DNA of 64,000 bases from Candidatus Sumerlaeaceae bacterium (GTDB taxonomy: Bacteria > Sumerlaeota > Sumerlaeia > Sumerlaeales > Sumerlaeaceae), in the NCBI GenBank assembly GCA_049968255.1, contig JBMFRB010000005.1, forward strand, positions 37,822 through 101,821, written 5' to 3'. The translations under genes and the position numbers were made by a program. Below are positions 2,184 through 29,608 of this stretch, piece after piece (position 1 is the first letter of the stretch; the number at the start of each line of letters is the position of its first letter). The notes below the pieces were generated by a model, which was given only the letters and a program-made list of their open reading frames with translations, had not been told where the DNA came from and ran no database searches.

Positions 2184-3566
2184 TCAGCGAGGCTCTGCTT
2201 TAGAAGAATAGCCCACACTATAGGGGCGCCATTCTTCCGTGCGGTGCGCATCGAGTTGTGCGCTTACACGGATTCCCTCTTCGGAAAAATCGGTCGCTAA
2301 GACCTTGCCTTCCTGATGAAGGCGTGCCAGGAGGTGATAGGCCGTTGGGGGAAGCAGAAGATCAAGCGTGACGGTGAGGGGCCGGGTTAGCCGCGCGACT
2401 TCCTCGAGCAAATCACGAATACCGATACGGTGACGCGCAGAAATAGCAACGGAGGGCACGTCGCTGGCTTCGAGCCGCTCGGTAGCAGCAGACACCAAGC
2501 CACGGTCGATTTTGTTGTAGACCCGTAGCAACGGTTTTTCGCTTGCGCCCAATTCCGCGAGAATTTCTTCGGTTGTTTGGATCTCTTGCTCGATGGTAGG
2601 TGAGGACGCGTCCACCACGTGGAGTAAGAGATCTGCATAGAGGACTTCTTCGAGAGTGGCCTTGAAAGCGGCAACGAGCGAAGGCGGCAAATCGCGAATG
2701 AAGCCGACCGTGTCCGTGAAGATAGCGACGCGGCTGTCGGGGAGTTGGGCACGTCGTGCTGTAGGATCCAGTGTGGCAAAAAGCTGGTCGGCCGTGGGGA
2801 CATGTGCCTTTGTGAGGACATTGAGAAGCGTGGACTTGCCCGCATTGGTGTAGCCGAGGAGAGCAACAACGGGCAGGTCCTGTCGCAGCCGTTGCTTGCG
2901 CTGCGTCTCGCGATGGCGCCGAACAGCGGTTAATTCCTTTTTTACTATGGCGATACGCTCGCCGATGCGGCGGCGGTCCATCTCGAGTTTGGTTTCACCG
3001 GGACCACGCGTGCCGATACCACCTCCTAAGCGCGACATAGCAAAGCCTTTGCCGATAAGCCGCGGTAAAACATATTGAAGCTGCGCGAGCTCGACTTGCA
3101 ACTTGCCTTCGTGCGTGCGAGCGCGACGCGCAAAGATGTCGAGGATCAGCTCCGTTCGGCCGATAATGCGCGTGCCGATTTCATCGGTGAGATTGCGCAC
3201 CTGGACTGGTGAAAAATCTCGATCAAAGACAATGCCTGTGAGCTCGAACATTTCGGCGCAGGCTTTGAGTTGCTGAACTTTGCCGCGGGTGAGGAAATAG
3301 GCAGGATCCACCGCACGCAGACGCATGACGAGCGAATCAACAACGACGCCAGATGCCGACTGCACCAGGCGCTCGAGCTCGGCCAGGGAAAGTACGGCAT
3401 GCTGGGCAGTGTCGCTAGGCAGCTGGAGTACGCAAACAAGGTAGGATTCTTCACCCGGAGAAGTGCTGCGAAAAGAAACGAATTGCGACGCAGCATTCTT
3501 TTGGCAAACGTCTAGCGCGTCTGTCGGTTCGCTCCGATTGTGTTGGCGCTGGCGCGCTGGCGTCAT
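2184..3566 (-). CDS. hflX: Ribosome-associated GTPase HflX
   Basis: LILDIFARRA, EGKLQVELAQL, GIGTRGPGETKLE, GYTNAGKSTL, LFATLDPT, DTVGFI, NKID. Confidence 0.96.
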   Translation of the reverse strand: MTPARQRQHNRSEPTDALDVCQKNAASQFVSFRSTSPGEESYLVCVLQLPSDTAQHAVLSLAELERLVQSASGVVVDSLVMRLRAVDPAYFLTRGKVQQLKACAEMFELTGIVFDRDFSPVQVRNLTDEIGTRIIGRTELILDIFARRARTHEGKLQVELAQLQYVLPRLIGKGFAMSRLGGGIGTRGPGETKLEMDRRRIGERIAIVKKELTAVRRHRETQRKQRLRQDLPVVALLGYTNAGKSTLLNVLTKAHVPTADQLFATLDPTARRAQLPDSRVAIFTDTVGFIRDLPPSLVAAFKATLEEVLYADLLLHVVDASSPTIEQEIQTTEEILAELGASEKPLLRVYNKIDRGLVSAATERLEASDVPSVAISARHRIGIRDLLEEVARLTRPLTVTLDLLLPPTAYHLLARLHQEGKVLATDFSEEGIRVSAQLDAHRTEEWRPYSVGYSSKAEPR

Positions 3567-3991
3567 GCTGACTTCTTTGGCTTTTTCTTGGCTTCTTCAG
3601 CCAGCCATTCTGCCTTCAGTTTGCCGATCGCCTTATTCATCATGATGAACATTGTATGCCAGTCAACGAGAAGCTGGTTGTACTGCGCCTCGCTCATTTC
3701 TTTGATGTACTGCAGGCTGACGGTATCCGTCAGCACTTTAAGGATGCCGTCGCCGTCCTTGAAATATTTTCCTGCCAACTCGAGAAAGCGATATTGGTTG
3801 CTGGCCAGCATATACATAATCTGGAAGAAAGCTTGTTCTTCCTGATCAGTGATCCGTCGGTCGCGCAGTTCTTCGGAAAAGAAGCGGAAGTAATCTTGCC
3901 AAAGCTTTGTGTATTGCTGGCATACGGCCAAGCGGTTCTCCAGCGATGTGAGTCGCAGATGGGGATCGTCTTTTTTGTGTCGCAGCGCCAC
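3563..3991 (-). CDS. Hypothetical all-helical cytoplasmic protein, paralogue of 7902-8468
   Basis: 142-aa ORF whose stop overlaps the hflX ATG (ATGA); aligns by eye with the 7902-8468 product (W...IT..EE..F...S.Q...E...WH..FI...KA.G.L). Confidence 0.8.
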   Translation of the reverse strand: MALRHKKDDPHLRLTSLENRLAVCQQYTKLWQDYFRFFSEELRDRRITDQEEQAFFQIMYMLASNQYRFLELAGKYFKDGDGILKVLTDTVSLQYIKEMSEAQYNQLLVDWHTMFIMMNKAIGKLKAEWLAEEAKKKPKKSA

Positions 3992-3997
3992 TCGCTA

Positions 3998-4108
3998 TTA
4001 CCCCTTTTTGAACATGTCGAGCGAATAGGCTATGTAGAGCGCATACACGAGAATACCCACGATGACGACGAGCTCGACCTTGGTGACGTAATTGAGCGTC
4101 GTAAACAC
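3998..4108 (-). CDS. Unannotated 36-aa single-TM microprotein (MFTTLNYVTKVELVVIVGILVYALYIAYSLDMFKKG)
   Basis: GTG start 7 nt after SD GGAGAAAGGA; double stop TAA TAG; fills the gap between two co-oriented genes; one hydrophobic helix with a basic tail. Confidence 0.65.
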   Translation of the reverse strand: MFTTLNYVTKVELVVIVGILVYALYIAYSLDMFKKG

Positions 4109-4133
4109 GGCTCGATCCTTTCTCCCTGGAGAC

Positions 4134-7100
4134 TCAGAAGTTCAAAATTTTTTCGGCACGAATGATCTTGGTACGCGCCTGTGGATCGATCATTTGCATC
4201 TGGACTTCGCCGCGCAACTTCTTGGCCTGGGCAATCTGATTGTAAGCAGTGTCAATAATGTCATAGGCGTCGCGTAGACTCACCTGATCGAGGATCAGGA
4301 GTTTCTGGAAATTCTCCGCCGCGACCAGAGCGTGCTTCACTGCGAGGATGACCTGCTCGTGCGTAGCTTCTTGCGATTTGGGTGGCTTGAGGTGGATAGT
4401 GCGTAGATAAATATCCCGAACAGCATCTTTGAAATCATTTGGGCTCATTTTGCCGGAGAGGCGCACAGCGCCAGCAAGGCCATTGGGCTGCTCGATGAGT
4501 TGCTTGATGAATGTCGGATCATGTGAGAGAACTACGTCGAATTTCTGGAAGCAATCGTCGAGCTGCGCCAGGAGTTCGCTGACTGCATCGAAATAGACCT
4601 GTTCTTGCAGGCGATTTTCAATTTGGTCCGTGAGTTCGATCGCTTTCTTCATATTCACATAGGACGACTGGTAATCGCCTTTTCGGAAATCGACAGCAGC
4701 GCGGTTCATGAGCGTTTTTACGTCGTCCACCTCTTGAGCCATATAGTTCTCGGCCCCGGCCTCGATTAACGCATTGAGCCGTGCCGTGTTTTCCTGCAAA
4801 TTCTGCTCGAGAACCAGCGGTGTGGTTTCAATCACGCGGGCGAGCCCAGCCTCAATGTCCTTGAGCCGCATCTCGACAGCGTCAAAGTTGCGCGTGCAGT
4901 ACTCATCGCGGGCTTGGGCGATCTCGGCAATGAGACTTTTCACCTCTTCCACGTTAAAGTAATTTGCCCCAGCGCGCAGAGCCTGGTTGAGAGCGCGATA
5001 AATGTTGTCGAGGCGCTCCTGGAATGTGTAATCGCGCGAGTGATCAAGCGCCATTTGAGCTAGCTTAACAGCTTCCTTCGCGAGTTCCTGTCCTTGCGCT
5101 GCGGTCTCCGCACTCCCTAGGAGCTCCTCTGCGACTGCTGCATTCTGTTCGGCCTCAACCAGGAGCGGATGTGCAGCTTTCCATCCCCCGTACTGCACGG
5201 ACAGGGCTGCAAGATCTTGTGCTTTGCGGACGTTGTAGAGACGCGCGTCGTCGGCAGCCGTGAGGGCTTGTTCGCTCACATCGCGCGCTTCGCGGTATTG
5301 CCCATTGGCCAAGAGTTTTTCGGCCTGTTCGTAAAGCGCAATGGCCTCAGTGAGCTGAGCCGGAGCAAACATGATGGCACCGGCTGCTTCAGCAAGGTTG
5401 ATGCGATCGGCCGCAGACTTCAGGTTAGCCTTGGCAGCGGCTCGTGCAGCATTAGTCTCGGCAGCCAAGAGGATACGTTGGGCTTCCTTGGCCGCCTCGA
5501 GTGATTTAAGGTAATCCTGGGTGATGAGGGCGTCCGACGACTCTTGCAGTTTGCGACGTGCTTCAGCAATCGCGCCTGGCTGATATTTGCGGATATCGCG
5601 CAGCCTGCGCTCGTCTTGTAACATTTGCTCTAATGCCACGCGAATCCCCTCGGCCGAATCGTTTGCAGGGGCCATTGTTGGGCTCGAAGAATTGGCTGGA
5701 TTGGAATTCGCTGCCACGAAGGGATCGCCGCGGAGTGTACCTTCGGCTTTTGGCGCAGTGCCACTGCTCACAGGGACTGGGCGTGTTCCTACGGTGGCAC
5801 CGGTGGGGGCGCCTGTCTTGCCTGCGAGATTCGAATCTACGACAGGCGTGTCGGATTTCATTATCGTGCCTGCAGGCATCCGCTCATTGGATAGTGGTAA
5901 GCTGGGGCTTGAGTCCGGACCGGCCATGATGTTCTGCTGAGCTAACTGTGCGATGACAAATGGTTTGGGAAGTAATTCCGACGCCTCTTCGTGGGCGAAT
6001 TTGTCATTTCCCTCACCCCCGCCCGGAGAGTCATTTTTCACCGTCACAACGCTAGGAACGCGTGGGGCACTCCCTTCGATGCGCCGCAGCAACTCTTCGG
6101 TGCGTTTCTGTTCTTCATGCGCGCGCTCAGCCAACAGCTGCTTGACGTTTTCCAGATACGCACGCGCTTTGGCGGTCAATTCCGCAGCCTGGCGATTCTT
6201 GTCCTGGCTGAGCAACTGCTGTGTTTCTTCGACGAGCTGTTGAACCTGACTGAGTCCCTGCGCGGCATATTCGCGCGCCCCTTTGCGTTCAAGGTCGCTC
6301 AGCTCATCCTGAACAGCGATCAGCGCGTGCTCTGCGACGATTCTGAAGGTGCGACTGACGACCTGATCAGAAATTTGCTTAGCTTCCTGGGCCAACTCAA
6401 CGGCTCGTTTGAATCGGCGCTCTGACCGGGCGCTTTTCGCATCGCGCACCTTCAAGGCGGCAGCGTCGCGTTGTGAAGCCAGGTTCTCCGCTTCCGTTTG
6501 GCGACGAACTTCAAGACGCTGGTCCACCACTGCCGACTTTGGTTGTGCCTGGAAGAATGAGTCCATTTTATCGAGCGTGCGCGAGCAGGTTTCCCAAGCT
6601 TGTTGTGCATCGAGGATGTGTTTTTCCGCGAGCTGATCAAAAGCGGCCACGATGCGATCATTCTCAATCAAGCCCTGGCTGGCCTTTTCTTTGGCTGTGT
6701 CGAAATCGTTATTGTTGAAGAGGTCACGCGCTTCCTTCAGGAGCTGCTCCATGACCTCGACGCGCCCCGGAAGGTACGTGTCCACCGCTTCATCGCGGAG
6801 AGTTTTGATGGCTTTCTCGACGGAAGCAATTTTGTCCTTTGTGGCCTCGATACGGGTGACGGTAACGAGATCTTCGATTTGCGGTTTGAGCTGCGGGATG
6901 GTGTTGAGCACCGTGTCGAACTGATTGTTGACATAGTTGACCATCAAGCTCTGAAAGGATGTTTCGGCCGCTTGCAGACGATCGGGTGCGTAGATAATAG
7001 CTTCGTCAGCGCGCGCCTCGGCAATTTTTGATTCAAGGTAGCGGAGTTCTGCCTGTGCCTTGGTTTTCTTTGTCTCGATGATGCCGTTTTCCGCATCAGT

Positions 7101-7829
7101 GATTGCTTGGCCACAAAGGATAATCGCCTGTTTGTAGTCGCGGTCTTTTTCAATTTTCTTGGTGATGTTGTCGATGTTTTCGCGGGTGCGCACGATAGCT
7201 TGCGGTTGATATTTTTCCGCTTCGGCCAATTCGAGCTCCTTGAGTTTACCCTTCAGCTCATCGAGCTTGTTGATCGCGGCGTTCTTCAAATGGGCCAGGA
7301 GTTGGTCCACTGCGACAAGTGTCTCGCGCGAAGCTTTGATAGAGTCTTCGTATTTTTGTTTTTGATATTTTTCACTTGCCGTCTGGAGGCTAGTTTCGGC
7401 CTTTTTGAATAGGTCGGGGTTTTCCTTGTCACCATCGTTGATGCGGGCAACTTCAACGGCTCGGCGCGCTTCTTGGAGAACTTGATCAGCATAGCGCGTG
7501 CGCGCATTATCGATGGCTTGCTTTGACTGGCGCACAGCTTCTTGTGCGGAGGAAAGCGCCTGAGAAAAACTCTGCCCAGTAAGGGCCTGCTGAGCTGCTT
7601 TTATGGCATTTTCGGCGGCTTCCAGAGCCCCTTTGCTCTCGTCGAATTTGTCAGCATTCCATTCGCGCGCTTGCTGCACATTGGCCGTTGCTTTCTTGAG
7701 GGAAAGCTCAGCGCGCTGTTTACTACAACCCGTTATTCCTAAAACCATTAGGATTGCGACACACCAGAGGGCCGCTTTTCGCCACCTAACGAATCCTTTC
7801 GTCACGTTGCCCGTCCTCATTTGTTTCAT
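4134..7829 (-). CDS. Very large (~1230 aa) predicted lipoprotein built from tandem DUF4398-like helical repeats with a central Pro/Ser-rich linker
   Basis: Basic N-region, hydrophobic stretch and lipobox ITG-C; recurring A..GA..Y/F-A-P..L..A units; ORF is open to 7871 but ATG 7829 follows a GAGG SD. Confidence 0.8.
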   Translation of the reverse strand: MKQMRTGNVTKGFVRWRKAALWCVAILMVLGITGCSKQRAELSLKKATANVQQAREWNADKFDESKGALEAAENAIKAAQQALTGQSFSQALSSAQEAVRQSKQAIDNARTRYADQVLQEARRAVEVARINDGDKENPDLFKKAETSLQTASEKYQKQKYEDSIKASRETLVAVDQLLAHLKNAAINKLDELKGKLKELELAEAEKYQPQAIVRTRENIDNITKKIEKDRDYKQAIILCGQAITDAENGIIETKKTKAQAELRYLESKIAEARADEAIIYAPDRLQAAETSFQSLMVNYVNNQFDTVLNTIPQLKPQIEDLVTVTRIEATKDKIASVEKAIKTLRDEAVDTYLPGRVEVMEQLLKEARDLFNNNDFDTAKEKASQGLIENDRIVAAFDQLAEKHILDAQQAWETCSRTLDKMDSFFQAQPKSAVVDQRLEVRRQTEAENLASQRDAAALKVRDAKSARSERRFKRAVELAQEAKQISDQVVSRTFRIVAEHALIAVQDELSDLERKGAREYAAQGLSQVQQLVEETQQLLSQDKNRQAAELTAKARAYLENVKQLLAERAHEEQKRTEELLRRIEGSAPRVPSVVTVKNDSPGGGEGNDKFAHEEASELLPKPFVIAQLAQQNIMAGPDSSPSLPLSNERMPAGTIMKSDTPVVDSNLAGKTGAPTGATVGTRPVPVSSGTAPKAEGTLRGDPFVAANSNPANSSSPTMAPANDSAEGIRVALEQMLQDERRLRDIRKYQPGAIAEARRKLQESSDALITQDYLKSLEAAKEAQRILLAAETNAARAAAKANLKSAADRINLAEAAGAIMFAPAQLTEAIALYEQAEKLLANGQYREARDVSEQALTAADDARLYNVRKAQDLAALSVQYGGWKAAHPLLVEAEQNAAVAEELLGSAETAAQGQELAKEAVKLAQMALDHSRDYTFQERLDNIYRALNQALRAGANYFNVEEVKSLIAEIAQARDEYCTRNFDAVEMRLKDIEAGLARVIETTPLVLEQNLQENTARLNALIEAGAENYMAQEVDDVKTLMNRAAVDFRKGDYQSSYVNMKKAIELTDQIENRLQEQVYFDAVSELLAQLDDCFQKFDVVLSHDPTFIKQLIEQPNGLAGAVRLSGKMSPNDFKDAVRDIYLRTIHLKPPKSQEATHEQVILAVKHALVAAENFQKLLILDQVSLRDAYDIIDTAYNQIAQAKKLRGEVQMQMIDPQARTKIIRAEKILNF

Positions 7830-7901
7830 CACGTCAGACCTCATTGAACATCCCTTGGTTAGGGAGGTCAAGTCCTGACTCGCCTCCCGCTCTTTTATTG
7901 C

Positions 7902-8468
7902 TCAGAACAAATTTAAACGCTTCCCCACAACCCAAATTGCTGCGCCAAGAAGAACCACAACGAGAATGTATTTGCCAACTGGTGGTTTCTCTTTTTTCTT
8001 TTTCTTTTTGTCGCCGCCACCGCCACCTTTCAGCTCGGAGATATTGGGTCCGCCGCCGGTTTTTTCCTTGGCTGTCGAAGGACGGTAACCCTCCGCAATG
8101 AACTGCAGAGCGCCCACGGCCTTTGCAAGATGGATAAACACATAATGCCAACTGTTGACGAGCAGCTGGCGATCCATCTTCGGTAGTTCCCGGAGATGCT
8201 GGATGGAGATGGATTGCCGGAGAAGATCGGCCATGCGCTGCTCGCCGAAGGTAAGTCCCGCCACCATCTTGCCTCTGAGCAAGCGCTGCAACCGCTGAAC
8301 TTCGCTTTTGAGGTCGAGAAAGGTTCGTTCGTCCTCTGGTGTAATCGGCTCGTCCGAGGCTGCTTTCACAAAATAAGCTTTGATGCGCAGCCAGATTTCC
8401 AGAAGGGCTTGTGCATCTTTTAGAGCCAATTCTGCCGGTGTAGGTGGTTTTTGTTTTTCTTTAGCCAT
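7902..8468 (-). CDS. Hypothetical tail-anchored membrane protein, paralogue of 3563-3991
   Basis: Helical N-domain, Gly/Lys linker GGGGDKKKKKKE, C-terminal TM YILVVVLLGAAIWVVG; SD GGAG. Confidence 0.8.
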   Translation of the reverse strand: MAKEKQKPPTPAELALKDAQALLEIWLRIKAYFVKAASDEPITPEDERTFLDLKSEVQRLQRLLRGKMVAGLTFGEQRMADLLRQSISIQHLRELPKMDRQLLVNSWHYVFIHLAKAVGALQFIAEGYRPSTAKEKTGGGPNISELKGGGGGDKKKKKKEKPPVGKYILVVVLLGAAIWVVGKRLNLF

Positions 8469-8542
8469 CCGTCTCCGCTAGCTCTCTTCGAGACCACAGG
8501 TGCTTTTGCGTTATTTGCTCTTTCGGGGGCAATTTCAAACCG

Positions 8543-9691
8543 CTAAACGCCGGGAACTCCCAGCACCTGGTCGCCATTGTAGATATTGGGCGTAGCCTGG
8601 GGCTGCACTTGTCCCGGCTGCTGGCCGGTGGCTCCACTCGCCCGTTTGGGCAAAGGCACGTAACCGGGGGGAAATGGATAACGGGGCAAGGCAGGTGCTT
8701 CGGGGACATAAATTTGGTAGAAGTCGCTTTGCGGGTCGTTCTTGTCAGTGCGGAAAGCCGCAAGAAATTTGTTGTTCCAGTCGCGAAGCAATTCGTCGCG
8801 CTGTTTCTCTTTCTCTAAGATGTTCGGAAACATAGGATTATCCGAGACTGGGTTCAGACTGCAGATGTGGTAGCCGAAGAAGAGCATGGTCGAAGCTTCG
8901 TCAGCGACACGTTGTGCATCAATTTCGAGCCGTTTGCGTCTGTCTGCCTCTGGCTCATAAACAAAGTAGGCTTCCTTGGCTGCTTCTCCAATTGGGGGCC
9001 GATAGAGATTCTCGGCACCGCGAATTGCCGCAATGAGTCGCTTTTTCAAATCATTGCACTCCGGGCCGATATACTTGTCTTTGATTGTCTCGACATTGCC
9101 GCGGATGTCGTCGCCAGCGACGCCGTTGTCATGGATGCCGTCATCGAAGTATTTGTCCTTATCCGTCGCCGGAACGGTGAGGTAGTAGGCATCATCGAGA
9201 AGTGTGCCACACACCGCGCAATAGACCCGACGCCCGACCAGCACTTTGATGGTCGGAATGGGAGTGGGTGTCGCTACCGCACCGGGAGCTGCGGGCGCCA
9301 CCGGTTGCGGAGCTGTGGGGCGCGACAGTCCCGGGATCACATCAGGCGGATTTTGCTCCCCACCTGTGCCCTCCACCCCAGCTGCCACTGCTCCTCCAGG
9401 AGCTGCCGCGGCCGGTGCAGCAGCTCCCAAAGGCGGCGGGGCGGAGAAACCTGCTGCGGGATTGGGCAAAGGCGCGGTCGGAGCCACCCCTGGGCGCATG
9501 TTCGCCGCTTGCACGGCTGCCTGAGCTCGGCCGGTGTAGGTGGCCGGATTCAGGCCGCCACCCGCTGCGCCGGCAGCCAACTGATCCTGCGTGGCCATAG
9601 CGGCACCAAGCTCAACCATTGTTTGGCCGATCACAATTCCACCACAGGCCATTGCACTTACAACTAGCAGGAATAGCTTTGCCTGTTTCAT
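8543..9691 (-). CDS. Secreted hypothetical protein with an Ala/Pro-rich N-region, a CxxC and an Asp/Gly loop (DDGIHDNGVAGDD)
   Basis: Signal peptide MKQAKLFLLVVSAMACGGIVIG; low-complexity linker; globular C-terminal domain. Confidence 0.75.
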   Translation of the reverse strand: MKQAKLFLLVVSAMACGGIVIGQTMVELGAAMATQDQLAAGAAGGGLNPATYTGRAQAAVQAANMRPGVAPTAPLPNPAAGFSAPPPLGAAAPAAAAPGGAVAAGVEGTGGEQNPPDVIPGLSRPTAPQPVAPAAPGAVATPTPIPTIKVLVGRRVYCAVCGTLLDDAYYLTVPATDKDKYFDDGIHDNGVAGDDIRGNVETIKDKYIGPECNDLKKRLIAAIRGAENLYRPPIGEAAKEAYFVYEPEADRRKRLEIDAQRVADEASTMLFFGYHICSLNPVSDNPMFPNILEKEKQRDELLRDWNNKFLAAFRTDKNDPQSDFYQIYVPEAPALPRYPFPPGYVPLPKRASGATGQQPGQVQPQATPNIYNGDQVLGVPGV

Positions 9692-20663: not shown

Positions 20664-21743
20664 TTACTTTTTTTCAGGTGGTTGCTTTGCAACGTAGCGC
20701 ACTTGGATGGTTTTGGGTTCCACGGTGCGGATCGTCAACTTCGAGCGAATGTCTTCAGGCGTATTGGCACTGAAATGTGCTTCGAGCCCGACCTCGCGCG
20801 TGGTTCCTGGAATCTCTTCCGCGGGCCGAACGAAGGACACTTCGATCATGTCAGGTGTGACCTTGGGCAAGAGGCTTTGGGGGCCAAAAAGTGTGACGGT
20901 GCAATCTTTTCTATCATATTCTACGCTGACGCTTTCCGGCGCCACAGCACTCAGGTTGATCTTCACGCCGCGCAGTTCGCGAACGGTTTGAATTTCCTGG
21001 ATCTCAATGCTGACTTCCGCTGTGGTCGTCTTTGGATGAATAATTTCTAGGCCGGGCGGCACGCGCAAGGGAACGGTCATAAGCCCGCCTTGGGTGCGCC
21101 CCGCGATGTCTATGCGGTTGGTGAGAATTTTTATCTTGCTTGTTTCAGCGTCGCGTGGCACAGCAAAGAGGATTTCGGGACGCCCGGTGACCCATACCTC
21201 CGGCGGGTCCACGCGCACCGGTGGAACAAGCTGATAACCGGAAGGAAGTTTGTCCGTTCCCACAAGGTCGGGCACGATCACAGCGGGCTCAGCTTTCCAA
21301 CGAGCCTCGACGCGCACAGTGTTCGTAGGAGCGCCGACCTTGACCAGCGTCACTCGCCGCGCCCCGCGAATTTTGGCCACAAGGTTCTTCTCATTCATGG
21401 GCTCTGTCTTCGACAGCCAGTCGAGCCCGAGCTGGTCGCGTAGGTCTGAAATATCCACCGAAAACCGAAAATTCTCGCTCGTAATATAATTGCGCAACTC
21501 CTTCGGATAGCGGAGAATCACAGGCATCTGGCTGGGTGAGACTCGAATTTCGATCCGTGGGTCCTCCGGCGTGACGACAACGGGAATTGTGAGTCCCGCC
21601 TCTTCACTTTCGCTGAGCTTAGCAAAGAGCCATACCGCGACCGCAAGGCCGACAGAGACGGCAAGGAGATTGAAATTCTCACGCCAGCGCTGCGATCTAT
21701 GCGGGAACGTTCGCTTCTTCTGTGGTTTCTTCACTTCGGGCAT
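20664..21743 (-). CDS. cdaR: CdaR/YbbR-like regulator of diadenylate cyclase
   Basis: N-terminal [17 protein letters not shown]; repeated beta-rich YbbR-like units (V.P..V.V.G); overlaps the 3' end of cdaA. Confidence 0.75.
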
Positions 21744-22509
21744 CTGTTAGGTCCAATAGCTGTTTGCGCAGCGTATCAAGCGTGTGATTGCGCTCCAACT
21801 TTCCGCGGTAAGCGAGCGAAATAATTCCCGTTTCTTCTGACACGACTATTACGGCTGCGTCTGTTTCTTGGCTCAAGCCGATCGCGGCCAAATGGCGTGT
21901 GCCGTATTCCTTATTCAGTGTGGGATCGTTGGCCAAGGGCAGGATGCAAGCTGCGGCCAGGATGCGATCATTTCGCAGGATCACTGCACCGTCGTGCAGA
22001 GGACTGTAGGTCATGAAAATGGTGCGCAGCAGCTCGCTAGAGATAAGCCCGTCAATGCGCGTGCCTGTGTCAGCATACGTATCAAGTGGCGTGTGGCGTT
22101 CGATGCAAATGAGCGCTCCAATCTTTTGGCGAGAAAAAGCGCGCACGGCTTTTAGCACTTCATCCAGATGTTCGCCGCTATTTGGGGCGAAAATTCGTCG
22201 AAACAGCCGTAGCTGCCCGACATCGGTGAGCGCTTTGCGAAATTCGTTCTGAAACACGATAAGAAAAATGAGTACGATAACGATCCAAAATTTCTCGAAG
22301 AGCATCACTGTGGCGGTAAGGCCAAAAATGCGTGCAAACCCGTAGAGAAATATCGCGCCAACAATGACGCCGACTAGTCCTTGGAGGGCCGAGGAGGAAC
22401 GAGTTTCGCGCAGGATCGCTAACAAAATAAAAACAATGGCTGCCACAATGGCGATATCAAGCAGATCGCTCACTCGTATTGAATATATGAGGTCCCATAT
22501 TTGGGCCAT
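21697..22509 (-). CDS. cdaA: Membrane diadenylate cyclase CdaA/DacA
   Basis: 3 N-terminal TMs, IVFQNEFRKAL, GALI, SPLHDGAVI, GTRHLAAIG, VVSEETG. Confidence 0.93.
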   Translation of the reverse strand: MAQIWDLIYSIRVSDLLDIAIVAAIVFILLAILRETRSSSALQGLVGVIVGAIFLYGFARIFGLTATVMLFEKFWIVIVLIFLIVFQNEFRKALTDVGQLRLFRRIFAPNSGEHLDEVLKAVRAFSRQKIGALICIERHTPLDTYADTGTRIDGLISSELLRTIFMTYSPLHDGAVILRNDRILAAACILPLANDPTLNKEYGTRHLAAIGLSQETDAAVIVVSEETGIISLAYRGKLERNHTLDTLRKQLLDLTDARSEETTEEANVPA

Positions 22510-22696
22510 ATGTTGATCCCTTGGCCTGAAATCGATTGGCGCTGTGGTGATTTTCAAAGCGCACCGCATCGCGATGCAAGAGAAGAAACGGTGGGGCACC
22601 GCTTGCTGCTTCGAGAAATGGACTTGAAAGCAACGCTCATACAGCAATCATCGCAAGAATTGGTTATTCCCCAAAAAAATAAGGAGCCAACGAGAG

Positions 22697-24104: not shown

Positions 24105-27100
24105 TTATGAATATAGAGTTTTTCTTGTGCTGAGCTCTTTTTGAATCTCCTCAAGTTCGGCAGCTGCGGATTGCGCATCGGCCGGCCGCTCATCGGGATT
24201 TTTGGCAAGACAACGCTGCACAAATTGTGCAACGATCAGGGGCACGTCCGGCACAAGATCGCTGAGAGATGGTGGCGGGACATGGAGGTGCTGAGCAAGA
24301 ACGTTTTCACCAATGAAGGGAGGGCGCCCGGCAAGCATTTCAAAAAGAACGATACCCAACGCGTAAAGGTCGGCCCGGCCATCTGACGCATTGCCCATGA
24401 TCTGTTCGGGTGCCATGTACGAGACCGTTCCCACCACGCAACCTTCGCGCGTGACCTTGGCATCCTCTGCGAGCCGCGCGAGCCCAAAATCTACCATTTT
24501 CACTGCATCGAGGGCACTAGCGATCATAACATTTTCAGGTTTCACGTCGCGGTGGATGATGTGAGCTTGGTGCGCTGCTCCGAGCGCAGAAGCCATCTGC
24601 CACGCATAGCGCAAGGCACGATCGAGCGACAACACTTTCTCGCGCGAAAGAAGGCTGCGCAACGACGGACCATCGACGTACTCCATCGTCAGGAAACACT
24701 CGTTCGGATTCGTGACAACGTCGTAGACAGCCACGATGTGCGGATGCGCAACTTGCGCAATGGCGCAAGCCTCTTGGAGGAGACGTCGCTGAAACTCGGG
24801 GTTGCCAGCAAGATGCGCTGGCAAGACTTTCCATGCCACATAACGGCCAAGGCGCGTATCCAGCGCGAGGTAAACTACACCCATGCCCCCTTGGCCCAGT
24901 TTGCGAACGATTTTGTAGCGCAAAGATTCTTGATCGACTTTTCCGCTAATCGTTGCGGCGAAGGGATCAGCGACACTGCTGCGAGCGGCAACTGCAGCCA
25001 TCTGCGTCTCATCGCGTGACGCAGTGATACGCTCGCGTGTACGCTCCAGTTTCTGCAACACATCGCGATAGCAGTAATCTACTGCGAGAATTTTGCTGTA
25101 CAGTTCCTTGGCTTCCTCGAGGCGCCCCGCGCGTTCGTAAGCGCTGGCAAGGTCGTAAACGAGCTGCAAATTGTCACGCTGGCATTTCCATTGCGGGCCG
25201 AGCGCTTCAAGTAGGCGATCTGCTGCAACCTCGTAAAGCCCTTTTTCGATAAAGCATTCCGCCATCAGCCGCAGCACATCGCGGCGATACTCTGGCACAT
25301 CCTGTATAGACTGAAGTACCTTGATGGCTTCATTGTAGCGCGCTGTCTCGGCATAGATTTTGGCAAGGTCGAAAGCCACGCCTGAGTCGTCGGGTTGCGA
25401 CTGTCGATGCCTCTCCCAATTCTCGACAGAACGTTCGAGTTGTTCGAGTTGCCGGAAAAGATAACCCGCCTGCCGAAACTTGCCAGCTTGTTCGTAAAAC
25501 TCGGCCGCAAGAAGAGTTTCGCCGAGCTGCTCATAAAGCTCGGCTGCACGCAGCGGCTGACGAGCATTCGCATAGCATTTCGCTGCACGCGGGATTTCGC
25601 CCATCTCTTCGTAAAGGAGTGCTGCACGCTCATACTTGCCAACGATCTCATAATGGCGCGCTGCTGTTCGTGTGTCGCCGACGCGCTGGATGTTGCTCGC
25701 TGCGCGCTCGTAATCGCCGAGCTGTCGAAACAGCTCGTAGGCTTGTTCATATTTTCCAGCTTCCTCAAAGAGCTCCGCTGCCCGAACGAGTTCTTGGCCT
25801 TTGGCATACCATTCGGCAGCAAGGAGTTTGCAATCTTTAACTTGATATTTTGTTATTAGCGCCTCATCGGTCGTGATGTAGATCGCAAAATCGAGCGGAT
25901 CGACGTGCAACGTCGTGATCCGCGTGGGCGATTGAAAGACGACGGATCGCCCTTTGCCCACTTTGACAAGTTCAACGATGTGCTCGCCGCAAACGATGAA
26001 GCTATCTTGCGTGCCCGGCAGGATTCCTAAATGCCGTACGGGCTCGGCAGCGTGAGTTTCCGCAACGACATCGAGGGTCTGAGAGCAACAGAAGATAAGA
26101 CGCTGGTCCCCAACGGCAGCACCGAGGATTTTGCTATTTGGCGAGAAGACGAGTTGATGGACGCGGTCTTCGAAATGGCGCGAAGCCAGGGATCTGCCTT
26201 CCGGGGAAAGTATGTACACTGTTCCGCCAAGTGAGCTTACCGCCAGCGTTTCGCTGTCAGGAGCAAACACCGCCTCCCATGCGCTGAAATCCACTTGGAA
26301 CTCCCAGCGAAGGCGCCCGGGCGCATCACACCAAACAACCTGATTCTCACAGCAGTATACGTGCGACAGAGACTTTTCGGTAACGAACGTGATGCCACGG
26401 AACGGTTCTGGCCCTGTATAGGCATGAAGCAATTTCTTCTCTTGATCGAGCAGCACTAATTGAAACTGCCCGACGTTGATGGTTGCGCTGTCGAGAACAG
26501 CGAGAAGAGCATTGCCGTCGGCTGAGAGAGCAACTTCGCGAATGGAAAACTCGCCTTCCGGACGCCACTGCCAAAGCTGCTGAAATTGACGCGATGTGTA
26601 AAAGAGCCGGCCCGATCGCAGCGCCAAAGCTGCCGCCTCCGCCCTTGAGGCAAGCGCAATCGCCACCACGGGCGCCTCGAACTGCCATTGCTGCTTCGAT
26701 TGAAGTTCGACGAGGTCTTCGTAAAGCTGCGCAGCTCTGAGCTCGCAGCCGGCGGCCCGCGTGTACGCAGTCACGGCAAGATCCACCCGCTCGGCTTTTT
26801 CGTAGGCAGCGCCAGCTTTTTCGAACTGTTCGGCCTTTTCGTAGAGCTCGCCAGCGCGAAACCATTCGCCACAGTCTTCGAGCAATTGAGCTGCCTCGGC
26901 ATATAGACCAGTCTGCTCGAAGAGCGAGGCCGCGAGCGCAAGTTGATTGGCACGACGACATTCTTCGGCGGCAGCTTGGAGATCGCCCCGCTTCAAATAC
27001 ACAGACAGCAGCGCGCGCAGGTCGTTGAGCTTTCGCAACAGCTCGATGGCCTTTTGTTCCTGCCCAAGATCGAGATAAAGTGCGGCTGCGCGGCGCAGAT

Positions 27101-27461
27101 CGCCATGGCGCTCGGCCACTTCAGCCGCTTCACATTTTCGGTCGAGCTCGACTAATAAGGCCACCGCGTCAGTTATCGCTCCGTGGTCGAGAAGCACCCG
27201 CAGGGCAGCTTCATTGTCGCCACCGCGGCGGTAGAAGCTCGCGGCGGCTGCCGCGTCCCCTGCTTGGAGAGCGGTGCGCGCTGCATCGCGGTAGGCGCCC
27301 AGTTCGGCGTAGAGTCGCATTGCTTCGAGCAACTGCCCACCCTTCTCCAGGACACGAGCCTGGGCAGAAAGATCTTGCGCCTTCTCAAAAAAGCTAGCTG
27401 CGCGCGCATACTCCTGCCGTTTTTCATAGTAGCGACCAAGTATTTCGTGCAGCCATGTCAT
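24105..27461 (-). CDS. Cytoplasmic Hanks-type Ser/Thr kinase with an N-terminal alpha-solenoid, an inserted beta-propeller and TPRs
   Basis: About 13-aa periodic AA.LYE..G repeats; PQQ/WD-like blades (W.F...V..VA.S.DG); kinase motifs GQGGMG, VAWK, HRDVKPEN, DFG, YMAPE; no signal peptide or TM. Confidence 0.88.
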   Translation of the reverse strand: MTWLHEILGRYYEKRQEYARAASFFEKAQDLSAQARVLEKGGQLLEAMRLYAELGAYRDAARTALQAGDAAAAASFYRRGGDNEAALRVLLDHGAITDAVALLVELDRKCEAAEVAERHGDLRRAAALYLDLGQEQKAIELLRKLNDLRALLSVYLKRGDLQAAAEECRRANQLALAASLFEQTGLYAEAAQLLEDCGEWFRAGELYEKAEQFEKAGAAYEKAERVDLAVTAYTRAAGCELRAAQLYEDLVELQSKQQWQFEAPVVAIALASRAEAAALALRSGRLFYTSRQFQQLWQWRPEGEFSIREVALSADGNALLAVLDSATINVGQFQLVLLDQEKKLLHAYTGPEPFRGITFVTEKSLSHVYCCENQVVWCDAPGRLRWEFQVDFSAWEAVFAPDSETLAVSSLGGTVYILSPEGRSLASRHFEDRVHQLVFSPNSKILGAAVGDQRLIFCCSQTLDVVAETHAAEPVRHLGILPGTQDSFIVCGEHIVELVKVGKGRSVVFQSPTRITTLHVDPLDFAIYITTDEALITKYQVKDCKLLAAEWYAKGQELVRAAELFEEAGKYEQAYELFRQLGDYERAASNIQRVGDTRTAARHYEIVGKYERAALLYEEMGEIPRAAKCYANARQPLRAAELYEQLGETLLAAEFYEQAGKFRQAGYLFRQLEQLERSVENWERHRQSQPDDSGVAFDLAKIYAETARYNEAIKVLQSIQDVPEYRRDVLRLMAECFIEKGLYEVAADRLLEALGPQWKCQRDNLQLVYDLASAYERAGRLEEAKELYSKILAVDYCYRDVLQKLERTRERITASRDETQMAAVAARSSVADPFAATISGKVDQESLRYKIVRKLGQGGMGVVYLALDTRLGRYVAWKVLPAHLAGNPEFQRRLLQEACAIAQVAHPHIVAVYDVVTNPNECFLTMEYVDGPSLRSLLSREKVLSLDRALRYAWQMASALGAAHQAHIIHRDVKPENVMIASALDAVKMVDFGLARLAEDAKVTREGCVVGTVSYMAPEQIMGNASDGRADLYALGIVLFEMLAGRPPFIGENVLAQHLHVPPPSLSDLVPDVPLIVAQFVQRCLAKNPDERPADAQSAAAELEEIQKELSTRKTLYS

Positions 27462-27479
27462 TGCTCGCCCGCCTACCAG

Positions 27480-29468
27480 CTACTCCTTCTTTGCTTGAGA
27501 CTGTTCTGCTTCGAGCCAAGCCCGAAGTCTCGCTTCCGAGAGGGAGAGATTGGAGAAGGCCTGCTGTTCGCTGTAAGAAAGAATTCCAGCCACCTCTTCG
27601 AGTGTAGTTTCTCCGGTCACTGCTTTTAAGAAACCTGCCTCCCGCAGGGAGAGGTATTGCCCACTTCGCAGGGCAATACTGCGTAGTTCGGTTGCATTGA
27701 CATTCTGCAGAATTGCATTGCGAACTGTGGGGTCAAGCGCCAGAACCTCGAAAACACCAACCCGCCCCATGAAACCTACGCCGTTGCAAGCGGGACATCC
27801 TTTACCGTGAAAGAACTCCCAAGCGTCCATATCTGAATCGACAATTTTGAACAAATTAACAAGATTCCGCGACGGTTGATATGGTTGACGGCATTGCGGA
27901 CAGATCTTGCGCACAAGACGCTGCGATATCGAAGCCAGTCCCGTGCTCGAAAGCAAATAGGTGCGCAAGCCCACATCCATGAGGCGCATAATGGCGCCAA
28001 ACGCATCATCGGCATGGATTGTGGTAAAAACTTTGTGTCCGCTGAGTACAGCATGGACGGCCGCCTCGCCCGTTTCTTCATCGCTAATCTCACCGAGCAC
28101 GATCACATCTGGATCCTGGTGCATCATCGCGCGGATATGTTCACGCACGTTTCGCCCTTGCGTCCCCCGAAGCTGGCACTGCGCAATTCCCTCGATGCTA
28201 AACTCGACGGGCTCCTCGACTGTCACAATTTTCACGTCACCGCGGTTGAGATAATTGAGGCACGCATAGAGGGAGGTGGTTTTGCCCGAGCCAGTGGGAC
28301 CGGAGAACATGACGAAGCCAGCGGGCGAATCAAGGAACTTCTTAAACATTTCAAGAACTTTGGGGTTGAGGCCGAGATCGCTCAGGTCCTTGAGGCCGAT
28401 CTCGCGCGTGAGGGTGCGGATCGTAATCGAACAACCAAGCACGGTGGGGAACATCGAGACACGCAAATCAAAGTTGGTATTGTCGAGAGTCACATAAAAG
28501 TGGCCGTCGAACATGTTGCTCGTATCGCTGATGTCCATGCCAGCCAGCACCTTGATTCGCCGAACGATACGCTCGCCAAGGTGCGCCGGCAAATCGGTTT
28601 GGAAGCTGAGTTTGCCGTCAATGCGGTAGCGCACGCGAATCTTGTTGTAGAGCGACTCAATGTGAATGTCGCTGGCGCGCTGTCGGATAGCACTAGAAAT
28701 GATGTAGTCGACAATGTTCACCACCTGGCTCTCGCTGCTGGATGGTGGTTGGAGTGTTGTTTCAGCCAGCGTATAGCGGCGGAAACCGCTGGGGGAAAGC
28801 TCTTCGGTGACTGTGTCGTGCGGAGTGAAAAGATACTGCTCTTGAAGGATTTCGCGCAGGACGCGCCGAATCAGAGATTTGGGCGCAATCGCAAGATCGA
28901 ATTTACCGCCTGTGATTTGCTCGATTTTTTGGACTGCGGCCCGATCCTCAGGATTGTGGATGAGCACCGTTACTACATCGCCATCGCGAAAAAGGGGCAA
29001 AATTGTGTGTTCGCGCAAGACGGTTTCCGGAAACATTTGAAATACTGTCCGATCAACGAGGCGCCGATTGGGAATGATGTAGGGATAATCGAGTTGCCGG
29101 CTGAGCGCCTGCGCCAGTTGTTCTTCAGTAAGCCATCCTTTGGATATGAGAATTTCGCCAATAGGCTGACGACGCATCTGCTGCTCGCGTAGGGCTTCCT
29201 CAAGCTGCTCCTCGGAGACGAGCCCTGACTCGATAAGAATTTGCCCAACAGGAACACGAAGGTTGTACTTGCGCGCGATCTCACGGAGCTGGCGCTTTGT
29301 GATGTAGCCGAGGTCTACCAGGATTTCTCCAAGCCGGCGTTTCTCCAAACCTTCCTGCTGAAGCTGCAGCGCATAGCGCAGTTGGTTCTCGGTGATGAGA
29401 CCCTCCTGGAGAAGCACTTTTCCTAGCGCTTGCGCTTGTTGATCTGCTGTACGTCGGTCCAGAGCCAT
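27480..29468 (-). CDS. GspE/PilB-family secretion ATPase with tandem MshEN motifs
   Basis: RLGEILVDLGYI-type repeats; ASDIHIE; Walker A GPTGSGKTT; QDPDVIVLGEI; GH...TIH; CPQC...CPAC; GRVGVFE. Confidence 0.9.
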   Translation of the reverse strand: MALDRRTADQQAQALGKVLLQEGLITENQLRYALQLQQEGLEKRRLGEILVDLGYITKRQLREIARKYNLRVPVGQILIESGLVSEEQLEEALREQQMRRQPIGEILISKGWLTEEQLAQALSRQLDYPYIIPNRRLVDRTVFQMFPETVLREHTILPLFRDGDVVTVLIHNPEDRAAVQKIEQITGGKFDLAIAPKSLIRRVLREILQEQYLFTPHDTVTEELSPSGFRRYTLAETTLQPPSSSESQVVNIVDYIISSAIRQRASDIHIESLYNKIRVRYRIDGKLSFQTDLPAHLGERIVRRIKVLAGMDISDTSNMFDGHFYVTLDNTNFDLRVSMFPTVLGCSITIRTLTREIGLKDLSDLGLNPKVLEMFKKFLDSPAGFVMFSGPTGSGKTTSLYACLNYLNRGDVKIVTVEEPVEFSIEGIAQCQLRGTQGRNVREHIRAMMHQDPDVIVLGEISDEETGEAAVHAVLSGHKVFTTIHADDAFGAIMRLMDVGLRTYLLSSTGLASISQRLVRKICPQCRQPYQPSRNLVNLFKIVDSDMDAWEFFHGKGCPACNGVGFMGRVGVFEVLALDPTVRNAILQNVNATELRSIALRSGQYLSLREAGFLKAVTGETTLEEVAGILSYSEQQAFSNLSLSEARLRAWLEAEQSQAKKE

Positions 29469-29608
29469 CGTCTCCGTTTTCCTCAGGACGAAATTCTTTC
29501 TCCACACCGACCAAACACAGACGTCGGTGCCATTGCTTGATTTTTTATGATAGAGCTAATGACCTGGCAAGTCAGAAGGCAGGCAGGGAACATGGCTCGT
29601 CGCCACGT

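Follow-up and report, generated by a model that had tools for sequence, protein, structure and literature searches.

A five-gene unit conserved across Sumerlaeota combines paralogous S-domain proteins with a giant DUF4398-type repeat lipoprotein and may form a trans-envelope assembly

We undertook a computational analysis of a cluster of five genes in a 64,000-nucleotide stretch of contig JBMFRB010000005.1 (positions 37,822 to 101,821; hereafter the window) from a Candidatus Sumerlaeaceae bacterium. The genes, which we named sec, S5, giant, micro and S2 in the order in which they are read, lie head to tail on the minus strand together with a sixth gene, hflX (Table 1). Gaps of 74, 72, 25 and 6 nucleotides (nt) separate consecutive members from sec to S2, the second of these shrinking to 30 nt if giant starts at the TTG at 7871, and an ATGA overlap joins S2 to hflX. 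All six open reading frames (ORFs), at 2184–9691, were confirmed where a first-pass annotation, made from the sequence alone, had placed them as five co-oriented, closely spaced genes running into hflX through that overlap. The product of the last ORF is HflX (TIGR03156, 451.2 bits against a cut-off of 216.75, E 2.1e-135), with the Pfam domains GTP-bdg_N, GTP-bdg_M and MMR_HSR1. None of the five window proteins upstream of it passes any Pfam, NCBIfam or PADLOC model, and S2, S5, micro and sec have no usable match in those scans; the earlier description of the genes as uncharacterized stands, as none of the five belongs to a known functional family in these three collections. With respect to anti-phage defense, zero PADLOC families were matched at E<=0.01 by the five proteins and by S3, a further paralogue described below. 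Promoter-like sites numbered 2 against 3.4 expected and terminator-like sites 13 against 11.5 expected, with none in the minus-strand intergenic gaps. The genome carries Omp85 (4.4e-44), LolA (1.5e-18) and three secretins and is therefore that of a diderm.

Table 1. Genes of the cluster and its downstream neighbor in the window, and metagenome loci that encode tandem S-domain proteins.
Feature	Position	Strand	Description
sec	8543-9691	minus	382 aa, secreted protein
S5	7902-8468	minus	188 aa, tail-anchored S-domain protein
giant	4134-7829	minus	1231 aa, lipoprotein; reading frame open up to TTG at 7871
micro	3998-4108	minus	36 aa, single-pass membrane protein
S2	3563-3991	minus	142 aa, soluble cytoplasmic S-domain protein, S5 paralogue
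hflX	2184-3566	minus	460 aa GTPase, downstream neighbor, outside the conserved unit
Tandem S protein + PATAN regulator loci	L058:679-3249, L059:8567-11137, L061:1279-3112		Metagenome contigs

Comparison of 28 Sumerlaeota loci, comprising 12 from relatives of different families, 15 further loci and the window itself, revealed that the order and strand of the five genes are identical in all of them. The 15 further loci are those left, after removal of three duplicates, from a pattern search with a five-row S2 alignment of contigs representing one genome per species; its 18 loci are all labeled Candidatus Sumerlaeota, Sumerlaeia, Sumerlaeaceae or, under the old name, BRC1. Median gaps over the loci are 74, 74, 40 and 24 nt. 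All five genes were detected outright in 23 loci. Three micro ORFs that were initially missed were recovered in the gap between giant and S2 (E 1.4e-13, 2.1e-8 and 7.7e-7), which brings micro to 28 of 28, and a sec gene initially missed in L012 was recovered by profile (E 6.1e-29). The other missing genes fall at contig ends (L033, L040), and sec was found at every locus with DNA upstream of S5. Orthologues from the sampled families share only 23–30% identity.

The surroundings of the five genes are not kept in the same manner. Even the best-conserved cluster of flanking genes is limited to 7 of 27 loci, the 59 flanking ORFs scanned with Pfam at 20 loci that do not belong to the window's family are heterogeneous in content, and HflX follows S2 in 3 of the 27 related loci, all of them close relatives of the window. 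Because the flanks are not kept, we take the conserved unit to be the five genes and hflX to be a local neighbor. HflX, into which the first-pass annotation saw the cluster run, is not a member of it; the expectation in that annotation that the genes stay together in other genomes was borne out by the neighborhood comparison, in which they do so at 28 of 28 loci while the flanks change. Matches to the S5 profile occur in 74 of 75 Sumerlaeota genomes (usually three per genome), including all 43 of high quality, and the single genome with no S-domain match is 82% complete. On comparative sequence evidence, the five genes make up a single operon-like unit, specific to Sumerlaeota and nearly universal there.

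A gene of about 400–450 residues with no Pfam match lies some 75 nt upstream of sec, on the same strand, at 7 of the 27 loci (for example, L041:3189-4532); the Pfam result covers L041 and the ORFs at the same position in L013, L035, L037, L039 and L042. In some Sumerlaeota lineages, this gene may belong to the unit as its sixth member.

The genes that bracket the lipoprotein are paralogues, an observation of the first-pass annotation that was strengthened here. S2 and S5 have in common a domain of about 115 residues, the S domain, over which they are 26% identical (BLASTP, 115 aa, E 7e-10), and a profile of S5 orthologues detects 13 of 13 S2 proteins (E 6.5e-12 to 1.4e-19). No Pfam or NCBIfam model matches this domain. 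In S5 the N-terminal, putatively cytoplasmic S domain (11–125) is followed by a flexible Gly/Lys-rich linker and a C-terminal membrane helix (164–184). Every genome also encodes, elsewhere, a third paralogue of about 335–425 residues, S3 (S5 profile, E 1.1e-14 to 4.4e-25), in which the S domain precedes a single membrane helix and a periplasmic portion of about 160 residues that is poorly conserved. We considered whether this periplasmic part might be a fused sec or giant repeat and rejected both, as hhalign gave a probability of 0.1% in each case. An alignment of 40 S domains from all three paralogue groups has four invariant residues, W26, E47, W107 and H108 (S5 numbering). Maximum-likelihood analysis resolves S2, S5 and S3 as one clade each (supports 100/99, 81/88 and 98/87, respectively), so that the triplication of the S domain is at least as old as the sampled radiation.

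An AlphaFold2 model of S5, computed from the 40-row alignment, is an up-down four-helix bundle with a predicted local distance difference test score (pLDDT) of 88.0 and a predicted template modeling score of 0.69. The domain is rare, with 556 matches at E<=1e-3 among 1,835,955,588 representative proteins, and a Pfam scan of the best 150 of those 556 relatives returned TM2 only, in two proteins. Foldseek returned zero matches to the S-domain model at E<=1e-3. With VIA-align the best match had a Z of 12.6 (root-mean-square deviation (rmsd) 2.6 A over 120 residues), to ligand-binding bundles of chemoreceptors, and this falls below the bar of about 13 that applies to helical bundles. A relaxed Pfam scan of the 40 S domains (E<=1) gave no recurrent family, and neither 4HB_MCP nor a related family was among the 25 of 39 families listed for it. 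The best match of the S5 profile in a PDB sequence search had an E of 3.6. Longer fused forms of the S domain did not score, a negative that the method itself rates as weak evidence. What emerges is a new domain, a putatively cytoplasmic bundle of four helices marked by an invariant W...E...WH signature, which is always present more than once per lineage and always at the membrane.

Complex prediction of S5 (residues 1–135) with S2 gave an interface score (ipSAE) of 0.90 in three of three runs, against 0.02 for the best of three controls. The mark of the method is reached by 116 of 157 solved complexes and by 2 of 215 mismatched pairs, counts that apply only approximately here, as our own alignments were used. 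The runs agreed in at least 96% of contacts, with a partner pLDDT of at least 88. The last helix of S5 (101–130, beside the invariant WH) is modeled on S2 residues 10–15, 59–71 and 84–95, a head-to-tail arrangement to which more S domains might in principle be added. AlphaFold-Multimer had been proposed as a check in the first-pass annotation and, for the pair S2 and S5, the modeling supports a contact.

The way in which this pair would be attached to the membrane varies between loci. Of 27 loci, 20 encode an S5 with the membrane helix, and in the other seven the protein ends in a basic tail; at three of these seven loci S2 has a TM2 domain (L018, 7e-18) or an amphipathic end. The notion of an anchor swap, in which S2 is anchored where S5 has lost its helix, holds in only those three of the seven loci and is kept as an observation. 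In some Sumerlaeota lineages S2 is fused to TM2 at either end (L018:10394-11152; proteins P0034 and P0037), and in L018, where both genes are visible, the TM2-bearing S2 stands beside an S5 that has no membrane helix.

Outside the phylum, S domains occur in tandem within single proteins that have three (P0007, P0008) or two (P0150) copies and a Lys-rich amphipathic tail. A one-to-one correspondence between three tandem repeats and S2, S5 and S3 was ruled out, since the tandem repeats form a clade of their own (100/98). Because that clade is separate, the tandem proteins must have arisen by independent multiplication, and such independent fusions lend support to S domains acting together.

The largest protein of the unit has a signal peptide that ends in the lipobox LGITGC; its Cys35 is invariant in 25 of 25 aligned sequences, and in all 26 giants (that of the window and 25 orthologues) the signal peptide has a terminal Cys after a hydrophobic stretch. 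Its 72-residue helical repeats are arranged in two blocks, separated by a disordered insertion and followed by a conserved non-repeat C-terminal part (about 1050–1231). Chain length is nearly fixed, at 1,070–1,260 residues, and outside the insertion the 26 giants align gap-free over a core of 1066–1100 residues. The insertion, which splits the repeat array, is a Pro/Ser/Gly/Ala-rich low-complexity segment of about 150 residues (approximately 590–745; window 5600–6070) that is found only in the window's family, about 75% of the aligned sequences being gapped across it. Profile-profile comparison of 120-residue windows gave self-matches with up to 97.7% probability. An iterated profile placed eight repeats in the window's giant, at 84, 156, 228, 300, 469, 770, 911 and 979, the first four spaced exactly 72 residues apart, and 8–11 per protein over the 26 giants; as the profile was trained on its own matches, the count is a lower-bound estimate and not an independent test.

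The likely identity of these repeats comes from the orthologues. DUF4398 (PF14346) matches 13 of 25 giant orthologues, at varying positions and with a best E of 3.2e-18; in single scans, L022 scores 49.9 bits and L014 40.4 bits, above the gathering score of 27.9 bits, and L015, L013 and L012 lie below it. The window's giant itself has zero Pfam families at E<=0.01 and no DUF4398 match at E<=0.1, and its repeats align column for column with those of the matching orthologues. Giant thus appears to be built of DUF4398-type repeats; a weak lead from the ESM Atlas (score 0.83, neighbors of about 200 residues) was later borne out by the Pfam scan of the orthologues. The first-pass annotation called the cluster uncharacterized, and giant is its one member with a known family, DUF4398, which is itself uncharacterized. 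Judged from its listing, the open full-text literature mentions DUF4398 in three papers, once in each and in passing. Like DUF4398 lipoproteins, giant combines a helical unit of about 70–78 residues with an N-terminal lipoprotein signal. Typical DUF4398 members hold one unit, as do the Atlas neighbors of about 200 residues, whereas giant has 8–11 detectable units, and it is the first context in which this orphan unit is seen as a long array of fixed length in a conserved gene set. Giant has 38 relatives at E<=1e-5 in a set of 5.8 billion proteins; all named ones are hypothetical proteins, and the organism labels shown are Sumerlaeota except for one plain "bacterium". Sequence comparison of giant with the PDB produced chance-level matches only (E 0.22).

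The other putative periplasmic member, sec, begins with a signal peptide, after which comes a nearly invariant Gln; a disordered Pro/Ala/Gly-rich segment (about 65–141) and a conserved C-terminal domain (about 145–345) with the motifs Y-x-DDG and P-x-PP follow. Invariant over 23 orthologues are G153, R155, D183-D184-G185, D194, P330, P333 and P336. Its AlphaFold2 model has a mean pLDDT of 60.9, with a folded core at 147–313. In fold searches, the VIA rows cover the N-terminal helix only (Z up to 5.5), the best Foldseek E was 1.5, and the ESM Atlas had no usable match and a model of neither sec nor giant; as the AlphaFold2 model is weak, we make no claim that the fold is new. All 33 relatives of sec are unnamed or hypothetical, and their labels are Sumerlaeota except for one plain "bacterium" and one Hydrogenedentota. 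The latter, P0221, is 61% identical to the window's sec and lies on a 304-kb contig labeled Candidatus Hydrogenedentota, which is probably a labeling difference since all other phylum-level labels among the relatives are Sumerlaeota. The alignment of micro orthologues shows a single membrane helix with a conserved Y-x-L-x-L/A-F-K-K end. The topology features of the five proteins agree with the first-pass prediction that they cover the cytoplasm, the inner membrane and the periplasm.

Two genomic contexts outside the unit point to the type IV pilus. The first concerns S3, whose gene directly follows pilC (T2SSF, 2.6e-60) in 12 of 15 genomes. Pfam scans of pilC loci L044, L046 and L048 gave the series PilB-type ATPase (MshEN+T2SSE), pilC, S3 and dprA, with topA after dprA in two of them, and dprA follows S3 in four of five loci scanned. 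Since dprA (and topA) follow S3, the pilus platform next to which S3 is encoded may serve DNA uptake. The string of pilB or pilT, pilC and S3 lies on another contig of the window's own genome (L023:2575-6180) and in L024, L044–L046, L048–L053 and L055. In the second context, the tandem S proteins are encoded after a response regulator with REC and DUF4388 (PATAN) domains in all three metagenome contigs with upstream DNA. Members of the tandem cluster are labeled as Limisphaerales and Binatia metagenome-assembled genomes (MAGs), not Sumerlaeota, and their contigs have no giant, micro or sec genes. On one of these contigs, L059, two Roadblock/LC7 genes lie upstream of the tandem S locus and exbB-exbD-tonB downstream.

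[quoted passage not shown] A possible likeness to the PATAN circuits that steer type IV pili in that organism (PixG/PixE/PilG) lies in the encoding of tandem S proteins directly after REC+DUF4388 regulators in 3 of 3 informative contigs; these contigs differ from the Sumerlaeota loci in lacking giant, micro and sec. Type IV pilus genes are reported for all Sumerlaeota MAGs of a comparative study, the searched text of which has, by term search, no mention of lipoproteins, outer membrane or hypothetical proteins (PMC8092238). The genome analyzed here has PilM matches, three secretins and 16 T2SSE matches.

The layout of S3, which has a single membrane helix between cytoplasmic and periplasmic domains and is encoded directly after pilC, is like that of GspL or of PilM and PilN combined, and S5 and S2 repeat its cytoplasmic part as might accessories of the inner membrane in the pilus or type II secretion system (T2SS). 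PilM and GspL have actin-like domains, whereas the S domain is a four-helix bundle, and neither the five proteins nor S3 matched PilM_2, PilN, PilO or T2SSL/M in Pfam and NCBIfam at E<=0.1. Unlike PilM-PilN-PilO, moreover, the five-gene unit is not encoded with pilB/pilC or pilMNOPQ, that position being taken in the 12 genomes by S3 only. The first-pass statement that the cluster matches no type IV pilus system is thus correct in that no pilus family occurs among the five proteins, but it did not extend to the S paralogue placed behind pilB-pilC.

Judged on synteny alone, the five proteins probably form one trans-envelope assembly. The first-pass annotation had proposed a lineage-specific trans-envelope structural module, a view that is partly supported here, with a tether, a division scaffold or an export accessory as its candidate roles. 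Our preferred reading goes further and proposes that this assembly, reaching from the cytoplasmic face to the periplasm, is docked via contacts between S domains on the base of the type IV pilus. As the coupling to the pilus is a further inference, our confidence in the full statement is lower, and we put it forward tentatively, as somewhat short of an even chance. The cytoplasmic foot would be made of tail-anchored S5 and soluble S2, binding each other at the face of the inner membrane, where the last helix of S5 with its invariant Trp-His would pack on helices 2–3 of S2. The membrane helix of S5 and micro would form the membrane part, and giant, with its long array of DUF4398-type repeats, would make up the periplasmic part together with sec. 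Docking onto the pilus platform would occur through S–S contacts and is proposed because an S domain is fused into S3 behind pilB-pilC and tandem S domains are encoded behind a PATAN regulator. In such a position the unit would be a structural accessory, whether anchor, spacer or scaffold for adhesion or retention, and an enzymatic or transport role is unlikely.

Several results weigh against the docked assembly. The fold of the S domain is a generic four-helix bundle by the VIA-align and Foldseek results given above, and the periplasmic part of S3 has no profile similarity to sec or giant. The complex model, built from unpaired alignments, cannot separate S2–S5 from other S–S pairings; as close cousins of true partners also pass, it supports binding between S domains and not which pairs form. 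The fold model of sec is weak, as its pLDDT indicates. With respect to the pilus, S3 is away from pilC in 3 of 15 genomes (L025, L047 and L054), and no pilus gene is consistently found beside the five-gene unit, whether in the flanks of 27 loci or among the 59 flanking ORFs of 20 loci, where a pilus or DNA-uptake flavor is limited to an MshEN-domain protein (L012) and a ComEA-like protein (L016). The presence of canonical PilM and secretins in the genome also means that there is no gap in the pilus machine for the unit to fill, and the genome's single PATAN gene lies on another contig than the unit.

The closest competitor, which we regard as somewhat less likely than the docked assembly, is a scaffold for envelope maintenance that is apart from pili, in which giant and sec, steered by S2 and S5, would act as organizers or spacers for the outer membrane, the peptidoglycan and the periplasm, much as Tol-Pal/CpoB, LpoA/B or Lpp-type spacers do. 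Presence of the S domain in every high-quality genome suggests a core rather than an accessory role. Some neighbors are also of the kind that such a scaffold would lead one to expect, as the unit has, in the window's family, genes for a phosphoglucosamine-mutase-like protein and for a LysM polysaccharide deacetylase upstream of it, and flanks elsewhere include GlmU-like genes (three loci), PBP2, LpxI/FabZ and an OmpA-family gene. DUF4398 itself occurs in small envelope lipoproteins of many phyla, as the weak Atlas lead hints. The overall logic of the unit resembles that of Tol-Pal/CpoB and of Myxococcus Agl-Glt, in which genes for large periplasmic lipoproteins with helical repeats lie together with those for a small membrane protein and for paralogous parts in the inner membrane or cytoplasm. 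However, no TolQ/R, ExbB/D or MotA-type motor was found in the unit or among the 59 flanking ORFs, the unit has no TonB-like or OmpA-like domain and no beta-barrel, and no part is homologous to those systems. The five proteins have, by Pfam, no peptidoglycan-binding domain of the OmpA_C, LysM or SPOR kind, the flanks are mixed, the most widely shared gene in them reaching only 7 of 27 loci, and TolB_N is matched, though weakly (23.3 bits, cut-off 22.4), in the genome itself. A scaffold of this kind also leaves the recurrence of the S domain beside pilC and PATAN regulators unexplained.

A bolder alternative does take up that recurrence. S2, S5 and S3 would form a cytoplasmic hub that couples the pilus platform to a periplasmic fiber of giant, sec and micro, making a new kind of apparatus, and the S domain would define a new, wider family of adaptors at the pilus base, serving PATAN regulators as well in other phyla. 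Examples of such an apparatus would be a stator or anchor for retraction force and, because dprA follows S3 in most of the loci scanned, a partner of a DNA-uptake conduit. We consider it rather improbable.

Transmembrane signaling is more doubtful still. Giant and sec would sense a cue that is passed via S5 and micro to the cytoplasmic bundles, acting as an output or adaptor module. In its favor, the fold nearest to the S domain is that of four-helix-bundle sensor or ligand-binding domains of chemoreceptors and histidine kinases (4HB_MCP, QseE and NarX types), on which the model superposes at Z 10–12.6 with an rmsd of 2.6–4.6 A over 104–129 residues, and the tandem S proteins outside the phylum follow a response regulator, with Roadblock/LC7 genes nearby on one contig. 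These fold matches, however, reflect a common helical arrangement only, at 5–14% identity and with Z below the bar for helical bundles. The four-helix-bundle sensors are periplasmic and lie between two membrane helices, whereas the S domain has no signal peptide, is N-terminal and cytoplasmic, and is followed by a Lys-rich linker and one C-terminal helix. Output domains, whether kinase, DNA-binding, cyclase or other, are neither fused to it nor kept adjacent (TM2 being the sole family among the best 150 of its 556 relatives), and the flanks of the unit have no conserved regulator.

That the five genes are merely neighbors with unrelated roles, a synteny accident among related genomes, is very improbable: all genomes come from one phylum, so that shared ancestry inflates the counts, but order and strand persist in 28 of 28 loci amid reshuffled surroundings, the loci span families with orthologues as diverged as noted above, and the bracketing genes are paralogues with a model-supported interface.

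The composition of the unit matches none of the known systems with which it was compared. In the open literature on DUF4398, on type IV pili in Sumerlaeota and on Sumerlaea, neither the S domain nor this operon nor any poly-DUF4398 protein was found described. To our knowledge, no Sumerlaeota isolate has been described. Sumerlaeota are widespread, and a gene set of fixed order that is nearly exclusive to the phylum is a candidate for a defining structure of its cell envelope. The S domain and the DUF4398 array are also connected by a genomic bridge to the type IV pilus platform and PATAN regulators. If the link to the pilus is true, the docked assembly would represent a new accessory layer on a very well-studied machine; if it is false, the operon would still be a clean target for studies of how the periplasm is organized in a deep-branching diderm lineage.

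More distant parts of the window carry ordinary housekeeping genes. Genes upstream of the unit encode a metallo-beta-lactamase-fold hydrolase, the phosphoglucomutase/phosphoglucosamine-mutase-like protein and the LysM polysaccharide deacetylase (Pfam, NCBIfam). At 24108–29507 on the minus strand, a protein of 1118 residues with TPR and Ser/Thr kinase domains is encoded directly downstream of a 675-residue MshEN+T2SSE ATPase, the N-terminus of which has a short DUF4388-like match. At 20667–22647 on the minus strand, a gene for a diadenylate cyclase (DAC) precedes one for a YbbR-domain protein, the two resembling a cdaA-cdaR pair. A GlmM-like mutase often accompanies a cdaA-cdaR pair, and here it is found 8 kb from it, just upstream of the neighbors of the five-gene unit.

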